In this document: one piece after another, positions 3,890 through 62,297 of the stretch
Layout: each line of letters starts with the position of its first letter
How positions within the stretch are numbered: position 1 is the first letter of the stretch
Assembly (NCBI GenBank): GCA_026390585.1
Contig: JAPLFP010000360.1
Coordinates: forward strand, 1,483 to 65,482
Reading direction: 5' to 3'
Source: Ignavibacteriales bacterium
Lineage (GTDB): Bacteria > Bacteroidota > Ignavibacteria > UBA10030
DNA length: 64,000 nucleotides
Notes under the pieces: generated by a model
Told to the model about the DNA's origin: nothing
Databases searched by the model: none
Seen by the model: only the letters and a program-made list of their open reading frames with translations
Made by a program: the position numbers and the translations under genes

Positions 3890-4915
3890 ATGAGCCTTTT
3901 TTCTCTTTTTTCTGCAGACATCGCTGTCGATCTCGGCACAGCGAACACGGTGATTTGGATGAAGGGCAAGGGAATTGTCCTCAATGAACCATCGATTGTT
4001 GCGTTCGACCGCAACACGAAGAAGATTATTGCGATCGGACACGAAGCCCGCGAGATGCTCGGTCGAACACACCGCGACATTCGCACCATACGGCCAATGA
4101 AGGATGGCGTGATCGCCGATTTTGAAATCGCCGAAGGAATGTTGCGCGAGTTTATCCGGAAGACGAGTCTCGGGTGGGTCCCGAGCCGGCGCATTGTTGT
4201 CTCGGTGCCTTCCGGTATCACCGAGGTCGAAAAGCGTGCCGTGCGCGATGCTGCCGAACACGCCGGAGCCAAAGAGGTGCACCTCCTTGCCGAACCTATG
4301 GCCTCAGCCATCGGCATCGGCCTCGACGTGGACGCGCCTGTAGGCAACATGGTTGTCGACATCGGCGGAGGAACGACCGAGATCGCCGTGATCGCCCTTT
4401 CGGGGATCGTTACGGAAGAGTCGATTCGCGTTGCCGGTGACGAAAAGAACAATGCCATCATTCAGTTCTTCAAACGAAACCACAATATCCTCATTGGAGA
4501 GCGGACAGCGGAAGCGATCAAGTGTGAAGTTGGATCGGCGATGCCGCTGCGCGAAGAAATCACCATTCAGGTGAAGGGCCGGGATCTTGTCAATGGAGTA
4601 CCGAAAACGACCGAGGTAAGCTCTGTCGAGATCCGCGAGGCTCTCAATGAACCAATTGCACAAATCGTCGAAGCGGTCAAGGTCACCCTTGAGCGCACTC
4701 CGCCGGAACTTTCGGCCGACATTCTTGACCGCGGCATCATGCTCACGGGTGGTGGTGCGTTGCTGAAGGGGCTCGACGAACGAATCAGACTTGAAACGAA
4801 TCTTCCGGTGCACGTTGCAGAAGATCCATTGACTGCTGTTGTGCGGGGAACAGGGCGTGTCTTGGAAGATCTCAGGCATTTTTCAAAGGTGCTGATTAAG
4901 AGTAAACGGTACTAA
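3890..4915 (+). CDS. mreB: rod shape-determining protein MreB
   Basis: DLGTANT, EPSIVA, RPMKDGVIADF, DIGGGTTE, LTGGGALL. Confidence 0.98.
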   Translation: MSLFSLFSADIAVDLGTANTVIWMKGKGIVLNEPSIVAFDRNTKKIIAIGHEAREMLGRTHRDIRTIRPMKDGVIADFEIAEGMLREFIRKTSLGWVPSRRIVVSVPSGITEVEKRAVRDAAEHAGAKEVHLLAEPMASAIGIGLDVDAPVGNMVVDIGGGTTEIAVIALSGIVTEESIRVAGDEKNNAIIQFFKRNHNILIGERTAEAIKCEVGSAMPLREEITIQVKGRDLVNGVPKTTEVSSVEIREALNEPIAQIVEAVKVTLERTPPELSADILDRGIMLTGGGALLKGLDERIRLETNLPVHVAEDPLTAVVRGTGRVLEDLRHFSKVLIKSKRY

Positions 4916-5005: not shown

Positions 5006-5845
5006 ATGTTCAAACGTATCTATAATTTTGTGTTGCTCTTCAAGGAGTATGCGGTCTTCTCCATTCTCCTTGTGCTGTCGCTTGTCCTGATGGCCCTTAA
5101 CGACAATACGCAGATCCGGCATATTCGTGGAGTAGCAACCGTCGTGTTTGGTGTTGTGCAGGATCAGCTGGCTTTTGTTCCCCGGTACTTCTCTTTGCGA
5201 AAGGAGAATGATATCCTTCGCCGTATGAATGTGGATCTCGCCGATGAAGCAAGTCAACTCCGTGAAGCCAAACTTGAAAATGATCGCCTGCGGCGGCTCC
5301 TTGGATTCAAGGATGTTTCTCACTACCCCCTCCTCGCGGCAAAGGTTGTTGGGAAAAACCTGACGCTTCTCCGGAATACAATTACACTCAATATCGGGAA
5401 ATTGGATGGGGTGTTGCCTCATATGCCTGTTGTCGGTGATGGCGGGCTCGTTGGGGTCGTTGCCAATGTCAACGATCACTATGCCATAGTGCGAATTCTG
5501 TATAACACCGATTTCCGGGCAAGCACAAAAAGCCAACGCGCACGCGTGGACGGTATCCTTGCCTGGGACGGCGAAGACTTGATCCTGACCAATGTTGCCA
5601 AGAATCTTGATATTGTTGCCGGTGATACGCTGATCACCACCGATTACAGCAGTACCTACCCACCGAATATCCGCATCGGCACTGTCAGCGAGGTTGCCGA
5701 GCAACAGGGATCGTTGTTCAAGCGCGTTCTCGTTACTCCTGGGGTGGATTTCGTGAAGCTCGAAGAGGTCTTTGTCATTTCATACATTCCCGACTCCGAA
5801 CGATCGGAATTAGAGCAGTCTCTGCAGCAGAAGTTGAGACGCTGA
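5006..5845 (+). CDS. mreC: rod shape-determining protein MreC
   Basis: N-terminal TM, coiled coil ending ENDRLRRLL, GLVG, GD.LIT...YPPNIRIG; directly follows mreB. Confidence 0.93.
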   Translation: MFKRIYNFVLLFKEYAVFSILLVLSLVLMALNDNTQIRHIRGVATVVFGVVQDQLAFVPRYFSLRKENDILRRMNVDLADEASQLREAKLENDRLRRLLGFKDVSHYPLLAAKVVGKNLTLLRNTITLNIGKLDGVLPHMPVVGDGGLVGVVANVNDHYAIVRILYNTDFRASTKSQRARVDGILAWDGEDLILTNVAKNLDIVAGDTLITTDYSSTYPPNIRIGTVSEVAEQQGSLFKRVLVTPGVDFVKLEEVFVISYIPDSERSELEQSLQQKLRR

Positions 5846-5892
5846 TCTTCCCAACCAGACGTCACTCATCATCGAAAGGTATTTAAGGATCT

Positions 5893-8352
5893 ATGAAAAT
5901 CCTGAAATTTGGTGGCTCATCCGTCGCTGACCCTGAGTGCATTCGCAGTGTTGCGGCAATCGTGCTGGCTGCAGCCAAGCGGGACCGTATTGTCGTCGTA
6001 GTATCAGCTTTCCAGGGAGTGACGAATCAGCTGCTCCAGTGCGCTCGCCTTGCGGAGAAGGGGCGTGCCGAATATCAAAAACTCTTCGCACAGATTGCAC
6101 AGAAGCATCGCGATGCTATCAATACGCTGATCAAGAAGCACAATCGCCGCCAAACACTTGCGATCCTCGATGAACAGTTGAAAGAACTTGAAGATGTTCT
6201 TCATGGAATGTCACTCCTTCGCGATTGCCCGCCACGCGCGCTGGATCTCACTGCAAGCTTTGGAGAGCGCCTTTCCGCCATGATCATCGCCGCTTATTTG
6301 CAGCAGTTGCATCAGACGGAGCCTGTTGATGCACGCCAGCTTATCGTCACCGACGATCAGTTTACCCACGCTTCTGTTTTGTTTGATCAGACAAATCGCA
6401 AGATTCGCTCTTACTTCAATCGCCTGCAACAAAAGAGCCGCCATCGCGTCATTCCTGTGGTGACCGGGTTCATCGGATCGACAGAAGACGGACGAACGAC
6501 GACGATAGGTCGAAACGGATCGGATTACACTGCCGCAATTGTCGGGGCTGCTCTCAAAGCCTCTGTGATCGAAATCTGGACAGACGTTGATGGCATCCTC
6601 AGCGCCGATCCACGTGTTGTTCCGTCTGCCTTCGTTCTCCCCCAGATGTCATACGAAGAGGCAATGGAGCTTTCCTATTTCGGCGCGAAAGTCCTTCATC
6701 CAGCGACCATTGCTCCGGCCGTGGCAAAAAAGATCCCCATCATCATCAAGAACACATTTCATCCCGACGCACCCGGCACTGTCATCTCCGAAGGTGTCGA
6801 AAACTGGGAGGGGGTTGCCAAGGGAATAACCTCTGTGGATGAGATTGCCCTTCTGAGCTTGCGCGGTATGGGGATGGTAGGTGTTCCCGGCACGGCAGAG
6901 CGGCTCTTCCGTGCGCTCGCGTCTCACCATGTGAACGTTATCCTTATTTCCCAGGCCTCCTCTGAGCACACGATTTGTTTCGCCGTCGTCAAATCTGATC
7001 TGGCGCACGCTCGGCGAGCTGTCGCTGAGGAATTCCGCTACGAACTGCAAAGCAAATTGACGTCGCTCGACGAACGGCCAAACCAAACGATCGTGGCAAT
7101 CGTCGGGGAGGGCATGAAGGGCGCTCCGGGAGTTTCTGGAAAAGTTTTTCAGGCTCTTGGCCGAAACAATGTGAACGTTTCCGCCATCGCACAGGGAGCC
7201 TCGGAACGGAACATCTCTTTCGTCATCGATTCCACCCAGGGAAATCGTGCCCTCAACGTTATCCATGAAGCCTTTTTCGAAAAACGAAAGCGTCTCGCTG
7301 TTATCGTTATTGGGGTCGGGAACATTGGCTCTGCCCTGCTCCGACAGCTTCATCAACAGCATTCATTTCTCCTCTCGCAGGGATTTGACGTTCGCGTGTG
7401 CGGCGTTGCTAACAGTAAGCATTACATCCTCGATGCCGCCGGACTCGACCTTTCCCAATGGCAGGATGAGCTCAGTCGCTCACATTTCAAGATGCATCCG
7501 CAACACCTGGCAGAGAAGATTGCAGAACTCGAATTGACCAATGCCGTTCTCGTGGACTGCACGGCCAGTCCCGACATCGCAGAAGCATATCCTGATTTTG
7601 TCAACGCAAACCTCCACATCGTCACTCCAAACAAGAAGGCAAACGTGTTGCCGTGGAAGCAATACGCTGCCCTGATGGAACTGATGAAGAAACGGCAGAA
7701 GTACTTCTTGTATGAGGCAAATGTCGGTGCGGGACTTCCTGTGATTTCGACGCTTGGCGATCTCATTGCAAGTGGCGATCATATTGTCAAAGTGGAGGGT
7801 GTTTTCTCGGGAACGTTAAGTTATATCTTCAACCATTTCGACGGGAAAAAGCCTTTCAGCGAAGTGCTGCGAGAGGCCCACGAGCTCGGATTTACAGAAC
7901 CCGATCCTCGCGATGATCTTTCGGGCGACGATGTGGCGCGCAAACTCCTCATCGTTGCACGCCATCTTGGTTTGAAGCTCGACATGAAAGATATCCGGTT
8001 TGAGAACCTTGTTCCTCCTTCGTTGCGTGCAGAAGCGTTTTCACAGAATCTTTTCTTCCGGTTCGCCAAGGTGGATGCACGGATGCAGCAGAAACTTGAC
8101 GCCGCGCGTTCTCGGGGAGCCGTGCTTCGCTACGTCGGAATTCTCGAAGGCCATACCGCCGTTGCGGGCTTGAGAGAAATGCCTCTCAGTCATCCATTCG
8201 CTGGAACCAAGGGGAGTGATAACATTATCGCGATCACATCGCACCGCTATTCCCGTACACCTCTCGTGGTGCAAGGACCGGGGGCGGGAGCAGACGTTAC
8301 CGCCATGGGAGTGTTTTCTGACATTCTCAAACTTTTGCACTATTTACCCTAA
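5893..8352 (+). CDS. thrA: bifunctional aspartate kinase/homoserine dehydrogenase I
   Basis: KFGGSS, GRNGSDY, ELSYFGAKVLHP, two ACT domains, GVGNIG, EANVGAGLP, TEPDPRDDLSG, GPGAG. Confidence 0.97.
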   Translation: MKILKFGGSSVADPECIRSVAAIVLAAAKRDRIVVVVSAFQGVTNQLLQCARLAEKGRAEYQKLFAQIAQKHRDAINTLIKKHNRRQTLAILDEQLKELEDVLHGMSLLRDCPPRALDLTASFGERLSAMIIAAYLQQLHQTEPVDARQLIVTDDQFTHASVLFDQTNRKIRSYFNRLQQKSRHRVIPVVTGFIGSTEDGRTTTIGRNGSDYTAAIVGAALKASVIEIWTDVDGILSADPRVVPSAFVLPQMSYEEAMELSYFGAKVLHPATIAPAVAKKIPIIIKNTFHPDAPGTVISEGVENWEGVAKGITSVDEIALLSLRGMGMVGVPGTAERLFRALASHHVNVILISQASSEHTICFAVVKSDLAHARRAVAEEFRYELQSKLTSLDERPNQTIVAIVGEGMKGAPGVSGKVFQALGRNNVNVSAIAQGASERNISFVIDSTQGNRALNVIHEAFFEKRKRLAVIVIGVGNIGSALLRQLHQQHSFLLSQGFDVRVCGVANSKHYILDAAGLDLSQWQDELSRSHFKMHPQHLAEKIAELELTNAVLVDCTASPDIAEAYPDFVNANLHIVTPNKKANVLPWKQYAALMELMKKRQKYFLYEANVGAGLPVISTLGDLIASGDHIVKVEGVFSGTLSYIFNHFDGKKPFSEVLREAHELGFTEPDPRDDLSGDDVARKLLIVARHLGLKLDMKDIRFENLVPPSLRAEAFSQNLFFRFAKVDARMQQKLDAARSRGAVLRYVGILEGHTAVAGLREMPLSHPFAGTKGSDNIIAITSHRYSRTPLVVQGPGAGADVTAMGVFSDILKLLHYLP

Positions 8353-8392
8353 CGGTCATGCTCCGCGTTCATCGAGAACTTCTCGAAAACCT

Positions 8393-9340
8393 ATGAAACC
8401 AAGATCAGTCAAGACATATGCGCCGGCAACAATTTCTAACCTCGGACCCGGGTTTGACACTCTTGGTGTCGCCATCAACAGCCCCGGCGATACCGTCGTT
8501 GCGCGTAGGCGATCGGAGCCTGGTCTCGGATTTTCCGTCGCAACCAAAAACGCCGGTGTACCGCTTGACGCCAAGAAGAATGTTGCCAGCTTCGTCGCTT
8601 CTCTCCTCTTGAATGAAAAACACCCGTCGTTCGGCATCGAGATGATTCTCCATAAGTCGATGCCTGTTGGGTCGGGACTCGGAAGCTCAGCTGCCAGCAG
8701 TGTCGCAGCCGCTGTGGCGGTCAACGCTCTCCTTGTCAAACCCCTCAGCAAGGCAGACTTGTTACCATTTATCCTGGAAGGAGAGCGCCTCGCATGTGGC
8801 TCTGCGCACGCAGACAACGCAGCCCCCTCTTTGCTTGGTGGGGGGTGTCTCATCCGAAGCTACGATCCGCTTGATGTCGTCCCATTTCCCGTCAATCCTT
8901 CGTTGGTCTGGATTGTCGTTCATCCAAACACCGAAGTGCTCACAAAGAAAGCTCGCACTATTCTTCCAGATCAGATACCGTTACGCTCTGCAATTCGTCA
9001 ATGGGGAAATGTTGCGGGTCTTATCATGGGTCTGGGTGCAGGCGATCGGGACCTCATCAAGCGTTGCGTCGAGGATGTTGTAGCAGAGCCGCTCCGCGCC
9101 CAACTCATCCCCGGATTCTACGATGTCAAGAAAGCGGCGCTTGCCGCAGGGGCGCTTGGTTGCTCGATCTCCGGATCGGGTCCATCCATTTTCGCGATCG
9201 CGTCCTCCATGCAGAAGGCTCGTATCATCGGTACGCAGATGGCGAAAACATTCCGGCTTGTAGCCAATATTGAAAGCAACGTCTACATTTCACGCACGAA
9301 TGGGATCGGCGCTCGAATTGCCTGGAGAAAAGGCGCATGA
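8393..9340 (+). CDS. thrB: homoserine kinase (GHMP family)
   Basis: APATISNLGPGFD, PVGSGLGSSAAS, HADN, ISGSGPS; start trimmed to ATG 8393. Confidence 0.96.
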   Translation: MKPRSVKTYAPATISNLGPGFDTLGVAINSPGDTVVARRRSEPGLGFSVATKNAGVPLDAKKNVASFVASLLLNEKHPSFGIEMILHKSMPVGSGLGSSAASSVAAAVAVNALLVKPLSKADLLPFILEGERLACGSAHADNAAPSLLGGGCLIRSYDPLDVVPFPVNPSLVWIVVHPNTEVLTKKARTILPDQIPLRSAIRQWGNVAGLIMGLGAGDRDLIKRCVEDVVAEPLRAQLIPGFYDVKKAALAAGALGCSISGSGPSIFAIASSMQKARIIGTQMAKTFRLVANIESNVYISRTNGIGARIAWRKGA

Positions 9341-21457: not shown

Positions 21458-22609
21458 ATGCTTAAACGCAAAAACATCGCGATCCTTGGATCAACCGGCT
21501 CGATCGGACAAAACAGCCTGGAGGTCATCAGGAATTTTCCTGATCATTTCGCTGCCACGTACCTGACGGCAAATACCAATATTGATCTGCTCGAGCAACA
21601 GATTCGGCTTTTTCATCCCCGCGGTGTTGTTGTGTTGGACGCGGGTTGTGCTGCCACTCTTCGGGGCCGCGTTGACAGTTCTGTTGAAGTCTTATGCGGG
21701 GAGGATGGATTGGTGCAAGCTGTGACGCGCGACGAGGTTGACATCGTCATAAGTTCACTCGTCGGGTTTGCGGGTCTAAAACCCACCATCGCGGCAATTC
21801 AACACCACAAACGCATCGCCCTGGCGAACAAAGAGACCCTTGTTGTCGCCGGGGGGTTGATTACATCGCTCGTGAAGGAATACGGCGTCGACCTTCTCCC
21901 TGTTGACAGTGAGCACAGCGCTATACTCCAATGTCTTGCTGGAGAAGATCGCTCTTTGGTGACACGGCTCATTCTCACGGCCTCGGGGGGACCGTTTCTC
22001 AACACCCCCTCCGAATTGTTTCCTACGCTTACCGTCGAGAACGCGCTGAGCCATCCCAACTGGAAGATGGGGAACAAGATCACCATCGACTCCGCAACCT
22101 TGATGAACAAAGGGCTTGAGGTTATCGAAGCGCACTGGCTGTTTGCCCTGCCAGCGGAAAGGATTCACGTTGTCATACATCCCCAGTCCATTATTCATTC
22201 CATGGTTGAGTTTGTCGACGGATCCATCAAAGCTCAACTCGGCCTGCCGGACATGAAGCTACCCATTCAATATGCCCTTTCGTACCCTGAGCGTTGGCCA
22301 ATGAACGGGGCAAGAGTTGATTTCCCTGCCCTGCGGTCAATGACATTCTTCGAGCCCGATCGGGCGAAGTTTCGCTGCCTTGATCTTGCCTACGATGCTC
22401 TCTCTCTCGGCGGAACCGCTCCCACCATTCTGAACGCCGCAAATGAAATGGCCGTCAGCGCTTTTTTGCAGCACCGCATATCATTTGAAAAAATACCGGT
22501 TGCTATTGAGCGCGCTCTTTCGCTGCACAAGACTCGCCCAAACCCGGATTTGCAGGATATCATTGAAGCTGATCGTCAGGTTCGGGCATTTGTGGGAACT
22601 CTTTTATAG
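21458..22609 (+). CDS. dxr: 1-deoxy-D-xylulose 5-phosphate reductoisomerase
   Basis: LGSTGSIG, LANKE, PVDSEHSA, TASGGPF, HPNWKMG.KITIDSATLMNKGLE. Confidence 0.98.
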   Translation: MLKRKNIAILGSTGSIGQNSLEVIRNFPDHFAATYLTANTNIDLLEQQIRLFHPRGVVVLDAGCAATLRGRVDSSVEVLCGEDGLVQAVTRDEVDIVISSLVGFAGLKPTIAAIQHHKRIALANKETLVVAGGLITSLVKEYGVDLLPVDSEHSAILQCLAGEDRSLVTRLILTASGGPFLNTPSELFPTLTVENALSHPNWKMGNKITIDSATLMNKGLEVIEAHWLFALPAERIHVVIHPQSIIHSMVEFVDGSIKAQLGLPDMKLPIQYALSYPERWPMNGARVDFPALRSMTFFEPDRAKFRCLDLAYDALSLGGTAPTILNAANEMAVSAFLQHRISFEKIPVAIERALSLHKTRPNPDLQDIIEADRQVRAFVGTLL

Positions 22610-22678
22610 GAAATTCCGTATTACTTTGGGGGATCGCCCTCCGGAACGCTTTCGTTTTCGCCGTCACGTGAGATCTCA

Positions 22679-23992
22679 ATGGATTTTCTGCCAACAACAT
22701 TCTACTTCCTTCTTACAATAGGCGTTCTCGTGCTTGTGCATGAGCTGGGACATTTTCTTGCCGCCAAGCTTTTTGGCATGCGTGTGGACCGCTTCAGCAT
22801 TGGTTTTCCACCCCGCGCCTTTGGGAAAAAAATTGGAGATACAGATTACTGTGTCTCGTGGATTCCCCTCGGCGGATATGTAAAAATCGCCGGAATGGTC
22901 GACGAAAGTTTCGACACGGATTTCATCAATGAGGACCCTAAACCTTGGGAGTTTCGCTCGAAACCAATCTGGCAGCGACTGATTGTCATCTGCGCCGGCG
23001 TTGCCATGAACATTTTCCTCGCAGTTGTTATCTTTTGGGGAATCATCTACTACCAAGGTAAGACTGTACGACCGGTAACCGAAGTGGGGTACGTGGAGGC
23101 TGAGAGTCCTGCAGCAAAAGCGGGCTTTCAACTAGGAGATATCATCAGCAGTGTGAATGGCAGAGCGGTGGCTCATTGGGAAGATGTTGAAAACTTTGTC
23201 TACACAGACGCTCTGGCGGGAAGTCTGACGCTGAACATCAGGCGCGGCAACGAGCCGATGACGATCACGATGACGCAACCCCTCGTCTCCGCAATTCTCG
23301 AAGACCGTTTTGGTTTATCTCCCCCGGGAATGGCCCCGTACATCGCAAGCGTCGAGCCCGGAAAGCCCGCTGAAAAAGCCGGCCTTAAACCCGGCGACGT
23401 AATCGTCAGCGTGAATGGAGAAACCGTTTCTTACCAGTCCTTGCAGGAAAGGGTCAAACAAAGTTCGGCAAAAGAGGTCACCATTCGGTGGAAACGGAAT
23501 GAGACCATCCAGGAGGCACGGATTACACCTACCGCTGATGGAAAGATCGGCGTGAGTTTTTCTCGGGTGTACACCGGACCGGTTGAACAGATTCACTACT
23601 CTTTGCTTGCCTCGTTGCCCGAGGGGATCTCTGACGCCTGGAATATGAGCTGGATGAATCTCAAAAGCATTTACCAGATCCTTGTTGGACGAGTATCATT
23701 CTCCAAGTCCGTCGCGGGCCCCATTATGATTGCTAAGATGGCAACTCGTTCAGCAGAAGTGGGTATCATAAGCTTTTTGGGTTTCATGGCGTTGCTCAGT
23801 ATGAACCTCGCGATTCTCAACCTTTTTCCGTTTCCTGCACTCGACGGCGGTCACGCCGTGTTTCTGGTCTACGAAGGAATTTTCCGCCGTGAGATACCGG
23901 CGAAGGTGAAAATTGCCATCCAGCAGGTCGGATTCGTCCTGTTGCTTGTGTTTATGGCCTTCGTTCTGTATAATGACATCATTCGATTCTAG
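22679..23992 (+). CDS. rseP: RIP metalloprotease RseP
   Basis: HELGH, PLGGYVK, two PDZ domains, NLFPFPALDGGH. Confidence 0.96.
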   Translation: MDFLPTTFYFLLTIGVLVLVHELGHFLAAKLFGMRVDRFSIGFPPRAFGKKIGDTDYCVSWIPLGGYVKIAGMVDESFDTDFINEDPKPWEFRSKPIWQRLIVICAGVAMNIFLAVVIFWGIIYYQGKTVRPVTEVGYVEAESPAAKAGFQLGDIISSVNGRAVAHWEDVENFVYTDALAGSLTLNIRRGNEPMTITMTQPLVSAILEDRFGLSPPGMAPYIASVEPGKPAEKAGLKPGDVIVSVNGETVSYQSLQERVKQSSAKEVTIRWKRNETIQEARITPTADGKIGVSFSRVYTGPVEQIHYSLLASLPEGISDAWNMSWMNLKSIYQILVGRVSFSKSVAGPIMIAKMATRSAEVGIISFLGFMALLSMNLAILNLFPFPALDGGHAVFLVYEGIFRREIPAKVKIAIQQVGFVLLLVFMAFVLYNDIIRF

Positions 23993-24082: not shown

Positions 24083-25270
24083 ATGAAAAAAGTTCTGTTG
24101 GCCGATGGGGCGGGTTTCTTCCGTTTCTGCACGGTGCTTGCCGCGTTGGGAACGTGGTTATTCCTCGCTCCCTCCTCCTTCGCCCAAACAAATACCTATA
24201 CGCTACAGTTCATGGGTCTCCCGACGGGGAGTATTGAATTGACTCAATACATCGGCCTCGATGGAAAACTCAAGCCCGATGTTGGGGGGCAAACTCTCCG
24301 CATAACGGTTACACCACCGTTAGCTCAGCCAAAATCGGTAGTGCTGACTGTTGTTGTTGCTGGATCGGGCTCATCGACAACGCAGTGCAACGCAGAGATT
24401 GCCAGGGCGACCACAAGAGCATTTCAAATCCCCGCCAATGTCGCGACGATGGATCTCGGCTCTGCTTCCTTCACTGGATCCTCCGCTATTGGTGTGCAGT
24501 CCTCATATACAAACCAACCTTGCATCGACGCCCTTAAAGACAAGATGACGAGCGGTGTTTTCTCGATCCCCGCAGGGATATACACCATCAGCGCAACTCT
24601 AATCGACGCCTCAACCCTCAGAGCGCTGAACGTGGGCGATCCAAACCAGCCGGCGGTAATTCAGATCTCAGGCGCCTCAACGAACGAAGCGATACTCAAT
24701 CTTACATCTCCGCAGAACGGTGATCAGGTTCCGTCAACCGGAAGCGTGGTCTTCAGTTTTGACAATTCCATGCCTGGTCGTCTGCTAGCATTCGAGCATT
24801 CGTCCCTTACACAATCTCAGGAAGACGCGACGCGCGACCTCAATTCGCCGTTGAAGATGCTCGATGTTTCGGTGACTTCCATCGGCAGCAACCAGGTGCA
24901 AGCTGCCTATCCGGGCGTTGCTCTCCGCGGCTGGACAGCTGGAAAGAAATACTCCTGGTTGTTTCTTGGATCGGTTCAGGGCTCCACTGATGTGCGGCGC
25001 AGTGCGGTGTGGTCATTCACGGTGGTCTCGAACGATCCGATCCTTGCCCAACTCGCTGCGGCTCTTATGAGTTCTCCAGATCCTATCGGCTCAACGTACA
25101 ACAACCTGGTCAATTCTGGGTACACGCTCGCGCCCCCAGGCTCCAACCCAATGTATCTGCAAGAGGGTGATAATGGGACGCCTCGAGCGATCGACGTTTC
25201 ACAAGTGCTGACGTGGCTTGCTGATCTTGCGCGCCGCAACGTCCAAGTCAAAGCCGTCGTCACCCAATAA
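24083..25270 (+). CDS. secreted beta-rich hypothetical protein (Ig/FN3-like; YP...GKKYSW motif reminiscent of DUF928)
   Basis: GGAGGG SD, signal peptide ending SFA-Q, LTSPQNGDQV, YPGVALRGWTAGKKYSW..SAVWSF. Confidence 0.7.
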   Translation: MKKVLLADGAGFFRFCTVLAALGTWLFLAPSSFAQTNTYTLQFMGLPTGSIELTQYIGLDGKLKPDVGGQTLRITVTPPLAQPKSVVLTVVVAGSGSSTTQCNAEIARATTRAFQIPANVATMDLGSASFTGSSAIGVQSSYTNQPCIDALKDKMTSGVFSIPAGIYTISATLIDASTLRALNVGDPNQPAVIQISGASTNEAILNLTSPQNGDQVPSTGSVVFSFDNSMPGRLLAFEHSSLTQSQEDATRDLNSPLKMLDVSVTSIGSNQVQAAYPGVALRGWTAGKKYSWLFLGSVQGSTDVRRSAVWSFTVVSNDPILAQLAAALMSSPDPIGSTYNNLVNSGYTLAPPGSNPMYLQEGDNGTPRAIDVSQVLTWLADLARRNVQVKAVVTQ

Positions 25271-25293
25271 CATCCTGGATGGAGGAATTTCCG

Positions 25294-26370
25294 ATGAATC
25301 GTTCATTTGTTCTTGTGATTATCGTCATCGTCGCCGCTCTTCTCGCGGCACCGGCGTGGAATTTCCAGGACAAGAAGCCGATCGCAGCGTACATCATCAA
25401 GGTGGTGAAAGATGTTGAGCGGCGGTCGGGCCCGACGTCGGGCTGGAGCAAGGCGATGCTTCTCTCTGAGTTAAAAGCCGGCTATGAGGTCCGGACACAG
25501 GACAAATCGTTTGCAATGATCAAGTTCGCAGACGAGTCAAAGGTTTCCGTGCGCGAAAAATCTATCATCACAATTTCGGGAGAGGTTTCCGGTGGCAAGA
25601 TCCTGAATCGTGACGTCTTCATTGAACGGGGGCGCGCTGTTTTCAACATCAAGAAGCAAGAGACAGAGCAGTTCCGCTTCACGTCGCCGATTTCCGTGGC
25701 CTCAATCCGCGGCACGGAAGGTGGAACGGGATTCGATCCTGGCACAACAACTTCAGACCTCACGCTCATCACGGGTGTTGCTGAGTTTACGAGCACGCGA
25801 ACCGAATGTAAGCTCGTGGTGCACGCCGGCGAGACAGGCCTCATCGACAGCACGGGCTGCAGGGCCGATACGGCCTCACTGAGGGCGCTGCAGAACAACA
25901 ATCCAAACTCCGGTGTGAATCAGGGCACCGCAGTAGATACTGTCGCCGGGTACCGGACCACAACAACGACAAGATTCTCTCTGAATACTTCTCTCAGCGG
26001 CACTTTGCAATCCGGTCAGGGGGCGGCGCTCAGGCTCTCTCTGGCGAACCCACCGGTCGATATCACCCAGGCAACCATGCGTTACCGAAACCAGGGTGAG
26101 ACGTCGTTCAAGACGCTGACGTTGACAATGAGTGGTGTCAATCTCTCCGGCACAATACCCGGCACCGACATCAAGGCGGGTACGACAAAGATATTTGAGT
26201 ACTACTTCTCGATGGCGGGCTCGGACGGGAAGACCTACTCGTTCCCGGAAACAACGCCCGAAGCAAACCCATACACGTTGCCGATAAAACCGAGGGTGGT
26301 GTATCTCAAAATCCCGATAACAACCCCCAACGGAGAGTTGCGTTTTCTGCAGATCTCGTACGAAGAATAA
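25294..26370 (+). CDS. exported FecR-domain protein with C-terminal Ig-like domain
   Basis: GGAGGA SD, hydrophobic N-terminus, G.EVRT..KS.A.IKF.DESKV, SPISVASIRGT, ITGVAEF. Confidence 0.82.
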   Translation: MNRSFVLVIIVIVAALLAAPAWNFQDKKPIAAYIIKVVKDVERRSGPTSGWSKAMLLSELKAGYEVRTQDKSFAMIKFADESKVSVREKSIITISGEVSGGKILNRDVFIERGRAVFNIKKQETEQFRFTSPISVASIRGTEGGTGFDPGTTTSDLTLITGVAEFTSTRTECKLVVHAGETGLIDSTGCRADTASLRALQNNNPNSGVNQGTAVDTVAGYRTTTTTRFSLNTSLSGTLQSGQGAALRLSLANPPVDITQATMRYRNQGETSFKTLTLTMSGVNLSGTIPGTDIKAGTTKIFEYYFSMAGSDGKTYSFPETTPEANPYTLPIKPRVVYLKIPITTPNGELRFLQISYEE

Positions 26371-26397
26371 TCCCAAGGAGGTCGCATTGCCGGTTTA

Positions 26398-26426
26398 TTG
26401 CTTCTCGTAGTTGGTTTTAATACATT
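26398..26426 (+). promoter_or_regulatory. putative internal sigma70 promoter
   Basis: TTGCTT-17 nt-TACATT between the FecR-domain and barrel genes. Confidence 0.4.
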
Positions 26427-26460
26427 GACGGCAGGTCGGGAGACCTGCCGTCTGCTTTTC
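26427..26460 (+). terminator. strong hairpin, weak terminator or mRNA stabiliser
   Basis: GACGGCAGGTC-GGGA-GACCTGCCGTC (11-bp stem, GNRA loop) followed by TGCTTTTC. Confidence 0.55.
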
Positions 26461-26517
26461 AATCAATCTGTCTGTTCGCCTTTCCTTGTCACCTTCTACT
26501 ATCACAGGAGACCCCTC

Positions 26518-28989
26518 ATGAATCGCTCTCTTGTTTCTCTTGTAGCCGTTGTTTGTATGATCTGTGCGGCTTCCCTCACGGCTCAAGCTCAAGTGAGTTC
26601 TGTCGTCCTGCGCGTGAATGCGCCTGTCGTGAGTCAAAACCAACCCTTGCCAATCAGCGTTGAGTTCACTCCCAGCGGCAATGTCGAGCGCGTCTTCCTC
26701 AGATATCGCGGGTTCGGGGAAAGTGAGTACCGGCAGCAAGAAATGCTCATGGCTGGCAATTCTGCAACAGCCACCCTCGCGGCTCAATACGTTATGCCCC
26801 CATACATTGAGTATTACATTCTGGTGGCGTTGTCAAGCGGCCGCTCCGAGACGTTTCCCATCGAAAATGCTGAGTCAACTCCCCTCAAGGCCACAGTGAA
26901 ACCCGTTGATCCAAAATCCCTCGAAGTGCGCGTCCTCAGTCCTGAGCAAGGCGAGACCGTAGCGAACGAAGATCTTGTTATTGCCGTTTCACTCTTCTAC
27001 GCCACAGACAACGTGAACAAGAAGGGGACGAAACTCTTCCTCAATGGAGTTGATGTCACGGCACAGGCAATATTCTCCGACGATGTTATCCTGTATTCAC
27101 CCGCAACCTTCCCTCGCCCTTTGAGTCTTGGCGTTCAGTTTCTCCGCGTCGAGCTCTACGACAACAGCGGCGGGTTGTACCACACCATCGAATCAAACTT
27201 CAGCCTCTCAACAGCTGCTGCGATCGCTGCTGAAGAGTCAAGGATGCGTTTTGGGTTGAATGGTTCGGCAGAATTCCGAAACGAAGATGTTGGCGTTACA
27301 AAGAACACGTTTGTCCGCGGACAGTTACAGGCGGCCGGCACATTCAAATCCCTGAACTTTGGCTCGAATATCTTCATCACCAACGAGGAAAAATCCGACC
27401 GCCAGCCACAGGATCGCTTCATGGCGTACGGGGATCTCGATGTCCTCAAGGTTCAACTGGGTGATGCATTCCCGAAATTCCCGACGAACATCGTCAGCGG
27501 TAAGAGAGTGCGGGGTGTTTCAGCAAACCTTCTGCTGAAGTTCTTCAACGTCGACTTTGCCTACGGCGAAACGATGCGTAGTATTGATGGATTTGTCGTC
27601 GATACATTAAAATATGCCGACACCACTGCGGCCAAATCCCGACCTGCAAACACCGTCCAGCAACCCGGATATCCGCTGCGATACTTGACCTTCCAGTCTG
27701 GCACGTTCTCCCGCAGCTTCATGGCTATCAGGCCGAGCTTTGGGTCGGGAGAAAACTTTCAGTTCGGTCTTACATATATGAATTCCAAAGACAAGGTCGA
27801 GTCAATCAAATATGGCCTTACACCCCAGGAAAACCTCGTTGCCGGAACCGATCTGCTTATAGCGTTTGACGACCAGCGATTCCGCATCGACGGCCAGGCT
27901 TCGCTAAGCCTGACAAACCGCGACATCAGCACGGGGAACTTCACCGATGCAGACTACGCTCTCCTCGCCGGAACGAACGACCCAACCCTGACTCCATCTC
28001 AAAAGGCCGATCGACAGAAAACTTCTGATGACCTTAAGAAAATAGCCGACTTCGGCGGAAAATTCATCACGGTCAATGAAAACCTGTTCCCGCTCAACCC
28101 CGTTGGCAAGGGCCTTCCCGGTGTTGCCTATGATGGCACCCTCTCACTCAATTATTTCAACAACTACATCCGGGCGCAGTACTACCAACGCGGCGCGGCG
28201 TATCTTTCTTTTGGCAACGAGTTTCTCCAGGCAGATATCCAGGGGCTGGCGCTTTCAGACCGCATACGGCTGTTCCAGAACAGGGTTTTGCTGAGCCTTT
28301 CCTACGAAAAGCGAAAAGACAACACTGCCGAAACCAAGGTGGCCACCACGACCTACGGCAATATGAACGGATCGTTGACGATATTCCCCGCAGCCAACCT
28401 GCCGTCATTCACACTCGGTTATGGCGTCCTTTCGCGTTCAAGCGATGCGAGCTTGACCGATTCGCTTCAGAAGCTGTACGCTGCTGACGATCAGACAAGT
28501 CGGATTTCCCTTCAAATCAATTATGATTTTACACTCGGCGCGCGCCACAACCTTTCTCTGGGTGCAAACCTGTCCGACAAGAAGGACAATCTCCCCGTCA
28601 ACCTCAACCGGGGCGAGCAAAAGAACAACAGCTATTTCGGATCACTCACGACCTTTTTCCGGATTCCGCTGCAGACAACGATTTCATTCAACACCAACAT
28701 GACACAGAGTTCTGCCTTGATCTCTTCACCTCTTGCAGGGATTCCCTTGCAGGACTTCAAGCTCACCTCTTTTTCGCTCAACGCCCAGTACCGCTTGCTT
28801 GAGGACAAACTGCGTCTCGCCTCAACGGTGAGCAATTCGTCTGGCGATCTTAAGCGGACGCTTGTGCAGGTTGGCGCCGATTACTCCATCACGAACAATC
28901 ACGCGCTGGCGTTTGAGTATGATTACATCAACAACACTGGCTACAAAAACGACAGCATCATGAGCCTGATCTATCGGTTCAACTTCTAA
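26518..28989 (+). CDS. outer-membrane beta-barrel protein with N-terminal Ig-like domains
   Basis: AGGAG SD, signal peptide AQA-Q, alternating amphipathic strands in the C-terminal two-thirds, terminal YRFNF beta-signal. Confidence 0.75.
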   Translation: MNRSLVSLVAVVCMICAASLTAQAQVSSVVLRVNAPVVSQNQPLPISVEFTPSGNVERVFLRYRGFGESEYRQQEMLMAGNSATATLAAQYVMPPYIEYYILVALSSGRSETFPIENAESTPLKATVKPVDPKSLEVRVLSPEQGETVANEDLVIAVSLFYATDNVNKKGTKLFLNGVDVTAQAIFSDDVILYSPATFPRPLSLGVQFLRVELYDNSGGLYHTIESNFSLSTAAAIAAEESRMRFGLNGSAEFRNEDVGVTKNTFVRGQLQAAGTFKSLNFGSNIFITNEEKSDRQPQDRFMAYGDLDVLKVQLGDAFPKFPTNIVSGKRVRGVSANLLLKFFNVDFAYGETMRSIDGFVVDTLKYADTTAAKSRPANTVQQPGYPLRYLTFQSGTFSRSFMAIRPSFGSGENFQFGLTYMNSKDKVESIKYGLTPQENLVAGTDLLIAFDDQRFRIDGQASLSLTNRDISTGNFTDADYALLAGTNDPTLTPSQKADRQKTSDDLKKIADFGGKFITVNENLFPLNPVGKGLPGVAYDGTLSLNYFNNYIRAQYYQRGAAYLSFGNEFLQADIQGLALSDRIRLFQNRVLLSLSYEKRKDNTAETKVATTTYGNMNGSLTIFPAANLPSFTLGYGVLSRSSDASLTDSLQKLYAADDQTSRISLQINYDFTLGARHNLSLGANLSDKKDNLPVNLNRGEQKNNSYFGSLTTFFRIPLQTTISFNTNMTQSSALISSPLAGIPLQDFKLTSFSLNAQYRLLEDKLRLASTVSNSSGDLKRTLVQVGADYSITNNHALAFEYDYINNTGYKNDSIMSLIYRFNF

Positions 28990-29012
28990 GTCTGACATCT
29001 GAAAGGCGTTCA

Positions 29013-31217
29013 ATGGCCTCCTCCACGTTTAAGAAGAAGGCCCTGACATGGCTTGTCAGGGTTGGAATCGGGCTGGGGATTGGAATTCTTGTTGCGCTCA
29101 TCCGACTGTGGGATCCGGGCTTTATCCAAAGCGTCGATCACCTCTCAACCGATTACCGATATCAACAGCGGCATGATCGTTTGAAGGCAAGCGGCGAGCT
29201 CTGGGATGCGAAGAAGCTTGCTAATGTCGTGATCATTGGCATAGGAGAGGACGACATGAAGTCCCTCCCCGAATCGTTCCCCTTTCCCCGCTCCTACTAC
29301 GCACACATTATTGAAAACCTTGAACGTTCCGGAGTAAGGGCGATCGGACTCGATGTCACTTTTGAGTCGAAGCGCGATAGCGCATCAGATGCCGCGTTTG
29401 ACGCCGTGCTGAAGAAATACAACAATATCGTTCTCGCGGCGAAATACGAAGAGTCGACGGGGGGCGGAAAATATCGCTTGAGTACGCTCGAGCGGTCCTA
29501 CAGCAACATTTTCTATCAACCGGGCAGGCGTGTTGGCATCGTCAGCATTGCCGGCAAGGATCGCGATGATGTCGCGCGACGGTACCTCCCCATGATCTAT
29601 GTTGGCAATTTCCTTACCCCAACGTTTGGTTTCGCTCTTCTGAATTCCATTTTTGGCCTTAGCGATACCGCTGTCGTAGAGCTGCGCGATAGGAACTTTG
29701 TTCTCGCAGATCGGTTAATCCCACGTTACGATGGGCGCTCGTTCTTGCTTAACTACTATGGCCCTAGCAATACGTTCCGCTACATTAAATTCACTGAGGT
29801 CATAGACGATTCTACATTCAAAACAAAAGAAGAACTCGAGTACGACACAAACATCGACCAGTTTGACAGCGATCCAGAACTCCAGGTTTCATTAAAGGAC
29901 AAGATTGTTCTGATCGGCTCAACAATGCCGGAAGAGCGAGACTTTCACTCGACCCCATTGCTCAACATCGACGGGATGACGTCTATGAATGGAGTGGAAA
30001 TTCACGCCACCGCCATTCAGAACATCCTCGATCAGTCCTACATCCAGAGGGCAGAGCCCACGCTGGAATTTGCCCTGATTATTATCCTCGCACTCGTAGT
30101 GACACTCATTCTCATGCCTCTCCGGACTATCAAGATCCGATACGTGGTAGTACTTGAGCTTGCCTCGGTGTTCGTCGTTGCGCTTTTCATTTTCGGCGTC
30201 TTCGAAATTGCGGTCCGCTCGTTCACAAACAACAGCACCTTGATCAACATTGTCTATCCCTCGCTTGCGGTAGTACTTGCCTACGTTGGCGCGGCTGTAT
30301 ACCAGTACCTTGCCGAACGACAACAGAAGGCCCTTATCAAAAACGTCTTCAGCAAGTACATCAGTTCGGCGGTCGTCAACGAGTTGGTGGCAAACCCTGA
30401 AAAGGCAAAGCTCGGCGGCGACCGACGCGAACTCACCGTATTCTTTTCCGATATCGCAGGGTTCACAACGATCTCCGAGCAATTCCATACGAGGCCCGAA
30501 GGGCTAGTTGAATTGCTGAATGAGTATCTCGATGAAATGACCGGCATCGTTCTTAAACACGAGGGGACGCTCGATAAATACGAAGGTGACGCAATCATGG
30601 CGTTTTGGGGAGCACCGATCACCCAGAAGGATCACGCTCTCCGCACCTGTCTTGCCTCACTCGAAATGCAGAAGAGACTCGCAGTGATGCGCCCGAAATG
30701 GAAGAAAGAGGGTCGCCCTGGCCTTGAAGTTCGCATCGGCATCAATACCGGCGTTATGATTGTGGGCAACATGGGTGGAAAAGATCGGTTCGACTACACC
30801 GTTATTGGCGACAGCGTAAACCTCGCCTCCCGGCTTGAAGGGGCCAACAAGCAGTACGGATCAAACATCATGATCAGCGACTTCACGTATCAGCATGTAA
30901 AGGGACAGGTCCTGGTGCGCGAGCTTGACCTCATCCAGGTGAAGGGCAAAACCGAGCCGGTGAAGGTGTGGGAGCTTCTCGGGGCTTCAGACACGCCGAT
31001 GTCAGACAACCAGAAGCAGTCCCTCGAAATTTATCACGAGGGCCTTCGCCTGTACCGCGAGCGAAGCTGGCAAGAAGCCATCGCCTATTTCCAACAGGCC
31101 AAACAGCTCGACCCCACTTGCCATGTAGCAGACATTTATGAGCAGCGGGCAAACCTCTACCAAATCAATCCCCCACCGGCAGGATGGAACGGCGTTTTTG
31201 TGATGACGACAAAGTAG
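29013..31217 (+). CDS. CHASE2-domain class III adenylate cyclase with C-terminal TPR
   Basis: FPFPRSYYA..AIGLDV, DKIVLIG, GVEIHA (CHASE2), 3 TM, FSDIAGFT, DKYEGDA, DYTVIGDSVNLASRLE (Lys/Thr specificity pair), VKGK. Confidence 0.93.
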   Translation: MASSTFKKKALTWLVRVGIGLGIGILVALIRLWDPGFIQSVDHLSTDYRYQQRHDRLKASGELWDAKKLANVVIIGIGEDDMKSLPESFPFPRSYYAHIIENLERSGVRAIGLDVTFESKRDSASDAAFDAVLKKYNNIVLAAKYEESTGGGKYRLSTLERSYSNIFYQPGRRVGIVSIAGKDRDDVARRYLPMIYVGNFLTPTFGFALLNSIFGLSDTAVVELRDRNFVLADRLIPRYDGRSFLLNYYGPSNTFRYIKFTEVIDDSTFKTKEELEYDTNIDQFDSDPELQVSLKDKIVLIGSTMPEERDFHSTPLLNIDGMTSMNGVEIHATAIQNILDQSYIQRAEPTLEFALIIILALVVTLILMPLRTIKIRYVVVLELASVFVVALFIFGVFEIAVRSFTNNSTLINIVYPSLAVVLAYVGAAVYQYLAERQQKALIKNVFSKYISSAVVNELVANPEKAKLGGDRRELTVFFSDIAGFTTISEQFHTRPEGLVELLNEYLDEMTGIVLKHEGTLDKYEGDAIMAFWGAPITQKDHALRTCLASLEMQKRLAVMRPKWKKEGRPGLEVRIGINTGVMIVGNMGGKDRFDYTVIGDSVNLASRLEGANKQYGSNIMISDFTYQHVKGQVLVRELDLIQVKGKTEPVKVWELLGASDTPMSDNQKQSLEIYHEGLRLYRERSWQEAIAYFQQAKQLDPTCHVADIYEQRANLYQINPPPAGWNGVFVMTTK

Positions 31218-31282
31218 AGGGGACACAGAACAACTTTCAGAGTGGAGCCGGGAATCGGATGGTTTCCGGCTTCATTGTTTCT

Positions 31283-31595: not shown

Positions 31596-32651
31596 CTATT
31601 GCGCCGACACTCTACCGTACTGATCACTTTGAAGCATAAACCGAATTGAAATGCGGTGGGTGTTCCCGAGTAATTCGTCTGCCGCGAACCGCGCAAATGA
31701 GTAGTCGACATCCAGCATACGAAGGTGGAGACCGGCCCCCACACTCATCTGCTTGACATCGTTATACCCTACCCGCAGAGCAACAGTGCTCTTGTAATCG
31801 AACTCCAATCCCGCGTGCGGATCAAAGCTCACCGGCCCTACACTTGCAATCGACGCAAAATGTCTGTTTTCGAAACGCACATCGACGTCGGCAGCGGGCG
31901 TGAGGCGCCCGCCCAGAATGTCGATCGAATAGGCGGCACCGAGCTTCAATGTTGGAGACACAAGTTCATTTCGGCCAGTGCTCCATGCAACGAGCGTAGT
32001 AGTAACGTCCTGAGCGTTGAGCCCCAAAGAGAGGTTCGCCATGGGCGAATAGACGGCACCAACATCAAACCCTATGCCCGTGGCCGATTGATCGGCGAGG
32101 GTTCGCCGAATCAGCTTGATGTTCGCACCATAGACTAACCCCGATGACGACCGCTTCGCATAGGTAAAGTACAGGGCCCAATCCGTTGAGTTGAAGTACG
32201 TGATTTTGTCATAATCCAATTGGTCCGCGTTGTCGAACACCCCGTTGCCGTTGTTGTCTACCCAGGCATTGCGCGTGTCGGGGATTCCATCAACCCCAAG
32301 CCGCAGCACGCTCAATCCCAAGCTGGCATCCGGACCGTAGGGAATCGCCACACCCGCAAAATCGTAGTTGATGAGGCTGCCGAATCGCTCTTCGTGCATG
32401 ACGATTGCTTCGGGGTAATCGATACGCGCAAGAGCTCCGGGATTCCAATATCCGGCTGTCGCGTCATTCACAAGGGCAACGTGCGCTCCACCCATCCCGA
32501 GAGCTCGCCCCCCAACGCCAATGGCCATAAATTCCCCGGCATATTTCGCAACAGTTTGTGCTGTCACCGATGAGGCCAGGAACACCAAAAATACTACCGC
32601 TTGTCGACGCGCCCACATGTCTGCCACACTTATTGTGAGTAGGAAGGACAT
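31596..32651 (-). CDS. PorV/PorQ (UPF0164)-like outer-membrane barrel
   Basis: EFMAIGVGGRALGMGGA..A..NDATAGYWNPG, GIGFDVG, LRVGY, DYSF, THRISI; true start may be 32618. Confidence 0.8.
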   Translation of the reverse strand: MSFLLTISVADMWARRQAVVFLVFLASSVTAQTVAKYAGEFMAIGVGGRALGMGGAHVALVNDATAGYWNPGALARIDYPEAIVMHEERFGSLINYDFAGVAIPYGPDASLGLSVLRLGVDGIPDTRNAWVDNNGNGVFDNADQLDYDKITYFNSTDWALYFTYAKRSSSGLVYGANIKLIRRTLADQSATGIGFDVGAVYSPMANLSLGLNAQDVTTTLVAWSTGRNELVSPTLKLGAAYSIDILGGRLTPAADVDVRFENRHFASIASVGPVSFDPHAGLEFDYKSTVALRVGYNDVKQMSVGAGLHLRMLDVDYSFARFAADELLGNTHRISIRFMLQSDQYGRVSAQ

Positions 32652-32698: not shown

Positions 32699-32755
32699 CA
32701 TTGTTAGAGTGACTCACCGTGCTAATGTTTCATAGTGGTACAGGCTCTAACAATG
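32699..32755. repeat. 11-bp perfect inverted repeat
   Basis: CATTGTTAGAG (32699-32709) and CTCTAACAATG (32745-32755). Confidence 0.7.
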
Positions 32756-32949
32756 ATCTATAGTCTCTTGTCCTTTCTGATACCAAGATACGGGAAATTT
32801 GAAGTGATTGTCAAGCATGCGCTCGTTGCACACTTTTCAGCAGAAACTGTATTGATTTTCCGATCAAAATCTCCTATGCTCTGTCTGTTTGTGGGGTTGA
32901 CTCTGCGGGGACGGCAAACTCTTTCCCGAAATACTCTATCGCGGTACGC

Positions 32950-33264
32950 GTGGGCACCTCTTACGATCCTCACTTTTTTGTTCTTTACTCAGCACAACAT
33001 AGTCGTTGTGGACAGTTTATCGAAAGAGCCGATTTCCGTGTCGTCACGAAAGACGATCTCTTTGCCTGGTCACGCGATACTGCGTCAACTGGCGCGGTGC
33101 AACCCCTGCCGTTGCACTGCGATCGTTGCTCTGAAGATGTACCGGCGACACACCTTCGTATCATCAAAGACGTCTATCCTGTCGCGCGCACGATTGTTCC
33201 CGAGGTCGAAATCAAGCACTTTAATGCAAATGATTGGATCCTGAAAGTAAGAAAGGATTTATAG
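32950..33264 (+). CDS. small hypothetical protein, possible Zn ribbon
   Basis: HSRC and CDRC pairs; stop is followed directly by the SD of the dodecin remnant; GTG start uncertain. Confidence 0.45.
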   Translation: MGTSYDPHFFVLYSAQHSRCGQFIERADFRVVTKDDLFAWSRDTASTGAVQPLPLHCDRCSEDVPATHLRIIKDVYPVARTIVPEVEIKHFNANDWILKVRKDL

Positions 33265-54349: not shown

Positions 54350-54373
54350 GGTTTTTTCCTACATCAAGATTGT

Positions 54374-54993: not shown

Positions 54994-55008
54994 CGTGGGC
55001 TCTCCTGT

Positions 55009-58686: not shown

Positions 58687-58777
58687 GCGTACGTGACCGT
58701 GCGACAGATTTTATGAAGGTAGCCCCATCTCGCAGAACGGGAGCGGGGCTATCGCATTGTAAGCGCCATCAGGGAAC

Positions 58778-60200: not shown

Positions 60201-62297
<2,097 letters not shown>

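Follow-up and report, generated by a model that had tools for sequence, protein, structure and literature searches.

Four neighbouring genes in the genome assembly of an Ignavibacteriales bacterium (NCBI GenBank GCA_026390585.1) raise the question of whether an event at the cell envelope can be passed on to the synthesis of cyclic AMP (cAMP) without a sigma factor. They occupy nt 24083–31217, on the plus strand, of the window, by which is meant the whole stretch of 64,000 nt that was analysed (contig JAPLFP010000360.1, positions 1,483 to 65,482); unless a locus is named, coordinates below refer to this window. An original prediction, made from the sequence alone, had read the four genes as a signalling module composed of a secreted protein with immunoglobulin (Ig)-like domains, an exported FecR-domain protein, an outer-membrane barrel and a CHASE2-containing adenylate cyclase, here designated g1, g2, g3 and g4. 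As described below, the arrangement was found to be conserved in many relatives, and the four genes probably form an operon-like unit that serves as an envelope-spanning input module for cAMP synthesis, a reading to which a probability of about 0.6 is given.

Organization of the four genes

A check of the open reading frames (ORFs) gave the same four same-strand genes, with the same boundaries, as the original prediction. The gene g1 (nt 24083..25270) encoded a secreted protein of 395 aa with two Ig/FN3-like domains in its AlphaFold2 (AF2) model; g2 (nt 25279..26370) encoded an exported protein of 363 aa with a FecR domain recognised by Pfam; g3 (nt 26518..28989) encoded a predicted outer-membrane protein of 823 aa, modelled as Ig-like domains followed by a barrel; and g4 (nt 29013..31217) encoded a protein of 734 aa that, judged by Pfam and hydropathy, combined CHASE2, a class III adenylate cyclase domain and a tetratricopeptide repeat (TPR). 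The intergenic spacings were 8 nt between g1 and g2, 147 nt between g2 and g3, and 23 nt between g3 and g4. The kinds of protein were thus those claimed, that is, a FecR-domain protein, a barrel, and a cyclase with CHASE2 and three further transmembrane (TM) segments, with the proviso that the TPR scored under its cut-off.

Conservation of the four-gene arrangement

A search with a profile built from 14 homologues of the barrel yielded 79 loci, which were labelled as metagenome-assembled genomes of Ignavibacteria or Bacteroidota type; the unit was present in loci that bear the labels Ignavibacterium and Melioribacter. By tblastn, a FecR gene lay immediately 5′ of the barrel gene in 67 of the 68 loci with room for it, and a CHASE2 cyclase gene lay immediately 3′ in all 74 loci with room (74/74), so placed that both flanked the barrel in 63/64 loci. 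When the g1 profile was iterated, growing from 22 to 59 to 70 ORFs, a member of the g1 family was observed immediately 5′ of the FecR gene in 67 of the 79 barrel loci. The four genes were colinear and on one strand in 84 of 107 loci examined, with median gaps of 14.5, 62.5 and 15.5 nt across the colinear loci, which are lower bounds because ORF starts were set at the first start codon. The tightest linkage was that of the g1-FecR pair, the gap between the two being 50 nt or less in 81 of the 84 colinear loci.

Persistence of the arrangement did not depend on its surroundings. Fourteen loci that included 9 kb of upstream flank kept the FecR, barrel and cyclase genes but possessed neither Dxr nor RseP, the products of the two genes that precede the unit in the window; therefore, the linkage is more than inherited synteny. 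The gene order was also retained down to a barrel identity of 33–37% and across altered flanks. In a sample of 301 genomes drawn evenly from the phylum, the barrel family was present in 104, and the full unit was observed in the same order in 20 of the 28 regions taken from this sample for neighbourhood reading, these 20 coming from 8 families. The tallies of g1 and of the barrel were identical in families f1 (14/14), f8 (6/7), f7 (6/7), f23 (5/5), f27 (3/3) and f24 (0/63), and were 44/49 versus 42/49 in f32. The other eight regions held a barrel by itself (see below); in the five of these genomes that were mapped, the g1-FecR pair was adjacent elsewhere (5/5) and a separate g4-like CHASE2 cyclase was present (5/5), hence the four families accompany one another also where they are unlinked. 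The original prediction had made its own survival depend on co-conservation, and these counts bear it out: the four-gene arrangement occurs far beyond chance and is a real co-conserved unit.

Linkage of this kind could reflect nothing more than co-regulation or a common physiological theme, with CHASE2 binding its own small ligand and the three exported proteins never in contact with the cyclase. This is considered improbable. It would agree with the two other CHASE2 proteins of the genome, which work without such neighbours, with the dispersal of the unit in families f27 and f39, and with the fact that the contacts are ones that we infer. It fits poorly, however, with an order kept over such divergence and across changed flanks, with the joint retention of the four families when unlinked, and with the recurrence of FecR partners beside CHASE2 in Burkholderia (PMC5192318), Campylobacterota (PMC9239204) and rhizobia, as far as the available text of these reports describes them; moreover, the rhizobial partner is genetically required for signal perception, according to the available text of PMC7529298.

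Adenylate cyclase encoded by g4

CHASE2 is a common bacterial sensor domain. In g4, it was recognised by Pfam with an E value of 4.3e-47 (aa 25–363; nt 29085–30101), and the catalytic domain (Guanylate_cyc; aa 473–650; nt 30429–30962) with one of 2.3e-25, while the C-terminal match to TPR_2 (aa 674–702; nt 31032–31118) had an E value of 1.8e-4, under the cut-off. Hydrophobic segments at about aa 14–32, 350–368, 378–396 and 411–429 placed CHASE2 between the first TM segment and three further ones.

The conserved residues of class III cyclases bind metal, select the substrate, for which a Lys/Thr pair denotes class IIIb and ATP, and stabilize the transition state. The residues D480, K522, D526, T596, N603 and R607 of g4 were invariant in 26 orthologues, the Lys/Thr pair noticed in the original prediction being K522 and T596. 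The nearest solved chain was the catalytic domain of Pseudomonas aeruginosa CyaB (3r5g, E = 2.7e-45), in which the same motifs were aligned. On these sequence features, g4 is predicted to be an inner-membrane class IIIb adenylate cyclase with the full catalytic residue set, Lys/Thr pair included. Mean pairwise identity was 62% for the catalytic domain and 40% for CHASE2, compared with 38% for the FecR domain of g2 and 24% for g1. Seven matches to cyclic nucleoside monophosphate (cNMP)-binding domains were found in the same genome, and these seven genes, located elsewhere, could be the receivers of the cAMP produced.

FecR-domain protein encoded by g2

The FecR domain of g2 (Pfam PF04773; aa 70–165; nt 25486..25773, plus strand) was detected with an E value of 7.5e-8 and 33.2 bits against a cut-off of 24, and was the single FecR-domain match of its own genome, the one that lies beside the g4 cyclase. 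About 8 residues precede the sole hydrophobic segment of the protein (aa 9–27), which leaves no room for a cytoplasmic anti-sigma segment, as had been claimed; likewise, all 76 FecR-domain ORFs recovered from the loci possessed only a short signal-like N-terminus. FecR/FoxR-type proteins self-cleave at a conserved Gly-Thr. In g2, an IRGT sequence starts at aa 143, and the Arg-Gly-Thr motif said to be retained was found at aa 144–146 (nt 25708–25716); among the 26 orthologues of the family G145 was invariant and T146 was at least 90% conserved, and VASIRGT was the best-conserved stretch. A cleavage of g2 between Gly and Thr may be supposed from this motif. The family also shared a conserved C-terminal tail ending in IEYxE.

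An Ig-like insert of g2 (aa about 236–345; nt 25984..26313, plus strand) was found by tblastn (E = 4e-4 to 5e-4) and hhalign (probability 99.1, E = 1.9e-18) to be a homologue of the barrel protein's first Ig-like domain. Alignment showed it to be missing from short orthologues of about 230 aa and present in several copies in that of locus L017. Long FecR orthologues, of 562–659 aa, were observed in loci L017 (nt 6829–8808 of the locus), L034, L044, L045, L048 and L052; in that of L017, the one of the six that was aligned, the extra length consisted of several further copies of the Ig-like insert. Pfam detected no C-terminal FecR or STN-type domain in g2, and the search for solved relatives of the g2 family returned nothing significant (best matches E = 0.22 and 0.47).

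The FecR domain with its conserved Gly-Thr, together with the location of rseP (a site-2 protease gene) immediately upstream in the window, would be in keeping with classical surface signalling of the FecA/FecR/FecI type, its sigma factor being encoded elsewhere. Other observations argue against it. Besides the missing anti-sigma segment, in g2 as in the 76 FecR-domain ORFs of the loci, and the lack of a detectable C-terminal FecR or STN-type domain, the barrel matched no Plug or TonB-receptor family, and the rseP link was lost in the 14 loci that keep the unit. In agreement with the claim that no extracytoplasmic function (ECF) sigma factor is encoded nearby, no sigma-70 r2/r4 family was detected among the scanned window ORFs (9, then 38 of at least 110 aa), a scan that left out ORF 32735–33244 and the 3′-truncated ORF 62343–64000. 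Because the anti-sigma segment, the sigma factor and the plug are missing, a classical Fec system is very unlikely.

Outer-membrane barrel encoded by g3

The g3 protein possessed a signal-like N-terminus and a C-terminal end reading YRFNF, with Phe as the last residue. Its AF2 model, with a mean predicted local distance difference test value (pLDDT) of 72.7 and a predicted template modelling score (pTM) of 0.48, consisted of two N-terminal Ig-like domains (aa about 27–132 and about 136–235; nt 26596–27222, plus strand) followed by a large beta-barrel (aa about 244–823; nt 27247–28986, plus strand) of about 26–28 strands by a count of those assigned by DSSP, into which a helical stretch is inserted (aa about 477–516). 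The two Ig-like domains were unrelated to each other by hhalign and would be located in the periplasm.

No Pfam family was matched over its cut-off in 14 members of the barrel family, and neither Plug nor TonB_dep_Rec was matched in the 14 barrel homologues at E ≤ 0.1; the original prediction, which would have been undone by a known transporter or secretion component, was therefore left standing on this point. A Foldseek search returned only generic large barrels, namely MtrB at the top (6r2q_B; TM-score 0.37/0.45), then ushers, LptD and TonB receptors, with TM-scores of 0.2–0.45 overall (0.3 or less for the TonB receptors) and identities of 9–12%. The family is sizeable, with 1478 cluster representatives at E ≤ 1e-3.

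Secreted protein encoded by g1

The hydropathy of g1 revealed one N-terminal hydrophobic segment within a signal-like N-terminus, and no family of Pfam or NCBIfam was matched. In the AF2 model (mean pLDDT 80.3), a pair of beta sandwiches was followed by a small alpha/beta part at the C-terminus, and structure searches gave only generic Ig/FN3 folds with Z scores of 9.7 or less. By hhalign, these domains were unrelated to the Ig-like domains of the barrel or of g2. The nearest protein-atlas clusters were also without a Pfam family, and their taxon label, "Balneolota", comes from few members and serves as a lead only. Thus, g1 founds a family for which Pfam has no model. A suggested connection to DUF928 (PF06051), a family of partners of CHASE2 genes, was not substantiated, since the Pfam model, in a search that did not extend to profile-profile comparison, matched neither the 23 members of the g1 family at E ≤ 1 nor the whole genome at E ≤ 10.

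The middle of the g1 profile (positions about 135–310) also matched within open frames of 1000–6400 aa in other families of the phylum, for example G052:C60:116760-117380 and G066:C46:90826-91638. This part of g1 is therefore a domain of the repeat type that occurs in giant proteins, which are probably located at the surface.

Proposed mode of action

In the preferred reading, the g3 barrel, possibly together with g1, would register what happens at the cell surface or the outer membrane, and the periplasmic FecR-domain protein g2 would pass this on to CHASE2. The periplasmic CHASE2 domain of g4 would be the receiver and would switch the production of cAMP, which would then act on regulators that bind cNMPs and whose genes lie elsewhere in the genome. 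All physical contacts, the direction of the relay and the nature of the signal are given here as we infer them. A complex prediction for g2 aa 31–200 with g4 aa 34–350, computed with a 26-row alignment per partner and without controls, gave scores of 0.00/0.00 and is evidence neither way.

Several observations weigh against this reading. One of the 64 loci in which both flanks of the barrel could be seen, L066, held the barrel and cyclase without g1 or FecR upstream. Eight of the 28 phylum regions, from all three f27 and all five f39 genomes (3/3 and 5/5), held a barrel without FecR or CHASE2 nearby (loci L089, L090, L093, L097, L098 and L109–L111, with the barrel at about 7.5–11.3 kb of each locus), and in the five of these eight genomes that were mapped the matches to CHASE2 and FecR were never on the contig stretch of the barrel. 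The lone barrels sit behind a HIT-family gene and a gene for a TPR protein of about 110 aa, and in a quick IQ-TREE search with a midpoint root only they formed one clade of eight (Shimodaira-Hasegawa-like approximate likelihood-ratio test, SH-aLRT, 100) beside a clade of unit-linked barrels. The barrel family is thus not exclusive to the four-gene unit but has a second conserved context, and from this HIT/small-TPR/barrel context it follows that the barrel may have a role of its own. In addition, the AF2 model of the g3 barrel is only of middling confidence, and these partners are all missing beside the genome's two other CHASE2 proteins, so that CHASE2 is not generally dependent on them. Finally, no homology was detected between the g3 barrel and that of the NsrA-like proteins of rhizobia treated below (hhalign probability below 0.1): a comparison of 4 NsrA-like proteins with 14 barrel homologues gave 0.06, the profile on the NsrA side being weak with its 4 sequences. 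The parallel with NsrA therefore concerns the architecture and does not extend to a shared origin of all the parts.

There is another explanation, according to which g1 to g3 are an outer-membrane apparatus with a job of its own, such as the export or surface display of g1 or the passage of macromolecules, and the cyclase reports the state or load of this apparatus. What g4 performs would then be surveillance of the envelope rather than relay of an outside signal. Both propositions are regarded as unlikely, but they account for several findings. The barrel is very large, with its best, if weak, matches among the sheath and translocon barrels MtrB, ushers and LptD; the f27 and f39 barrels keep a separate, cyclase-free context; g1 and g2 are the tightest pair and stay next to each other where the remaining genes are scattered; and domain 2 of g1 also occurs in the frames of 1000–6400 aa that resemble surface proteins. 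On the other hand, no secretion or usher family was detected in any of the four proteins, the conserved unit contains no chaperone, ATPase or cytochrome gene, the structural matches reach TM-scores of 0.2–0.45 only, and the precedent, NsrA, is described in the available text of PMC7529298 as a receptor and not a transporter.

The relay from barrel to cyclase thus continues to be preferred, and it can be extended, tentatively, to the proposal that FecR-domain proteins are general periplasmic input adaptors of CHASE2 sensors. Linked to this, and put forward just as tentatively, is the view that CHASE2 is mainly a receiver for a barrel-tethered or barrel-threaded partner and not a small-molecule sensor. 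If so, the unit would represent, in modular form and with four proteins, a type of surface signalling that is ancient, independent of sigma factors and shared with Alphaproteobacteria and Campylobacterota, and the wide barrel and the Ig-like domain common to g2 and g3 would allow a segment of a protein to pass through the outer membrane or to plug it. Candidates for such a segment would be the conserved tail at the C-terminus of g2 and the g1 protein.

Boundaries and surroundings of the unit

In the gap between g2 and g3, a terminator-like scan and RNA folding located a hairpin at nt 26427..26452 (plus strand), with a perfect G+C-rich stem of 11 bp followed by a T-rich run. The core of the stem, CGGCAGG...CCTGCCG, was unchanged in 8/8 aligned relatives, and the loop was variable. 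This hairpin is possibly a partial terminator or an RNA-stability element, and as a partial terminator it could set the ratio of g1/g2 to g3/g4. A second, terminator-like stem-loop, found by consensus scan only, was located at nt 31241..31276 (plus strand), beginning 24 nt past the stop codon of g4, and is likely to be the end of the transcription unit.

Immediately 5′ of the unit and on the same strand are dxr and rseP (nt 21458–23992, plus strand), which have the same position in closer relatives. On the 3′ side, nt 31596–32651 (minus strand) encoded an outer-membrane protein of the PorV/PorQ family, matching NCBIfam PorV2 with an E value of 2.7e-67 but under the equivalog cut-off; by tblastn, a gene of this family was found 3′ of the cyclase gene in many of the closer loci. 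The genes yidC, yidD, dnaA, dnaN, recF and gyrB were present at nt 54000–64000, and the GC skew changed sign at about 54–58 kb; the region of the replication origin is probably contained here. With dnaA, dnaN, recF and gyrB close to the unit, the window belongs to the core chromosome.

Comparison with known systems

The FecA-FecR-FecI system and the unit described here share the FecR Pfam domain with its Gly-Thr, as well as the logic of an outer-membrane protein followed by a periplasmic FecR domain and an inner-membrane transducer. They differ in that the window unit is without an anti-sigma domain, an ECF sigma factor, a TonB receptor with plug and signalling domain, and the C-terminal domain of FecR. 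Similarly, the g3 barrel is similar in size to MtrB, the ushers of chaperone-usher systems and LptD, but shares no family-level sequence match with them.

Closer relatives, by gene content, have been reported beside other CHASE2 sensors. The "BiofilmReg" operon of Burkholderia and the pair resembling P. aeruginosa PA4035 consist of a LysM-FecR periplasmic protein and a CHASE2 histidine kinase, and the signals of CHASE2 are still called unknown there (PMC5192318, available text). As in the window unit, the gene for a CHASE2 sensor directly adjoins that for an exported FecR protein with no anti-sigma part; in contrast, the output described in that text is through a histidine kinase and response regulator, the partner contains LysM, and neither a barrel of the outer membrane nor an Ig protein takes part. 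In Campylobacterota, a cluster of genes for a CHASE2 adenylate cyclase, a cAMP phosphodiesterase, a FecR-domain protein of the outer membrane, and a TPR protein has been proposed to form one pathway (PMC9239204, available text). Likened by this description, it resembles the window unit in its CHASE2 cyclase, FecR-domain envelope protein and TPR element, whereas the conserved unit of the window contains no phosphodiesterase gene, encodes FecR and barrel separately and includes an Ig-like protein.

With regard to the novelty put forward in the original prediction, a full-text search found, among the papers that it covered, none joining CHASE2, or FecR and adenylate cyclase, with Ignavibacteri*. 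The idea itself is less new than supposed, because a cluster of a FecR-domain outer-membrane protein and a CHASE2 cyclase had been published for Campylobacterota (PMC9239204, as far as its available text goes). The theme of FecR, barrel and CHASE2 cyclase is already known; new here are the split form, the unrelated barrel and the extra Ig protein.

The NsrA-CyaK system of Sinorhizobium meliloti, which also involves CyaD1/D2, controls secondary root infection. According to the available text of PMC13001267, PMC7529298 and PMC10463352, the CHASE2 cyclases of this organism need the outer-membrane barrel protein NsrA to perceive the plant uL2 signal; NsrA is presented as a receptor of the outer membrane, and perception of the signal is said to need both it and CyaK (PMC7529298, PMC13001267); aa 600–1200 are given as its barrel portion (PMC7529298).

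A plasmid search with g4 showed that Sinorhizobium megaplasmids, including pSymB, encode a protein of 1202–1208 aa directly 5′ of a cyclase gene. Its records are labelled "FecR domain-containing protein" in one case and "TonB-dependent receptor" in another; by Pfam it possessed a FecR domain (aa 66–160, E about 1e-15) and TPRs, followed by a C-terminus of about 650 aa that belonged to no family and ended in Phe. The same pair of FecR-TPR protein and cyclase was present on plasmids of Rhizobium and Methylocystis, the single chains being 1202–1227 aa overall. CHASE2 was recognised by Pfam in the cyclase of Sinorhizobium mexicanum only, not in that of S. meliloti. The gene nsrA presumably adjoins cyaK. 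The 1202-aa protein of pSymB is very probably NsrA, as judged by its length, by its position next to the cyclase and by the barrel range given in print. The precedent in Sinorhizobium invoked by the original prediction is thus confirmed, but "loosely analogous" understated it, as the probable NsrA itself has a FecR domain at its start and a barrel at its end.

Divergently oriented 5′ of the rhizobial pair, a gene for a small membrane protein was observed in loci L116 (nt 2477–3022, minus strand), L119 (nt 4349–4888, minus strand) and L117 (nt 5325–5870, minus strand). The protein matched Pfam PycTM (Pycsar effector, E = 1.1e-10) in L116 and is annotated as "Pycsar system effector family protein" in L119 and as "DUF5706" in L117; from this match and these annotations, a gene resembling a cyclic-nucleotide-activated effector adjoins the cyclase locus.

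The FecR domain of the NsrA-like proteins was homologous to the g2 family (hhalign probability 97, E = 1.2e-10), with IRGT aligned. In NsrA-CyaK and the window unit alike, a CHASE2 class III cyclase adjoins a FecR domain and a barrel of the outer membrane, and the output is cAMP in place of an ECF sigma factor. In the NsrA-like proteins, however, FecR, TPR and barrel are joined in one polypeptide, whereas FecR (g2) and barrel (g3) are separate proteins in the window unit and neither carries TPRs; the window unit has, in addition, a fourth gene (g1), a TPR at the C-terminus of the cyclase, and two N-terminal Ig-like domains on the barrel protein. By this comparison, the window unit may be regarded as a split counterpart of NsrA-CyaK, with a different, wider barrel and an extra Ig protein.

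As the module is split, its parts are separable and the contacts between them can be tested one by one. The analysis also provides a context for two sizeable unannotated families, those of the barrel and of g1. An exported FecR domain and an outer-membrane barrel beside CHASE2 constitute a recurring theme, split in the unit described here, fused in rhizobia and reported for Campylobacterota, which points to a general route from the surface to a second messenger without a sigma factor.

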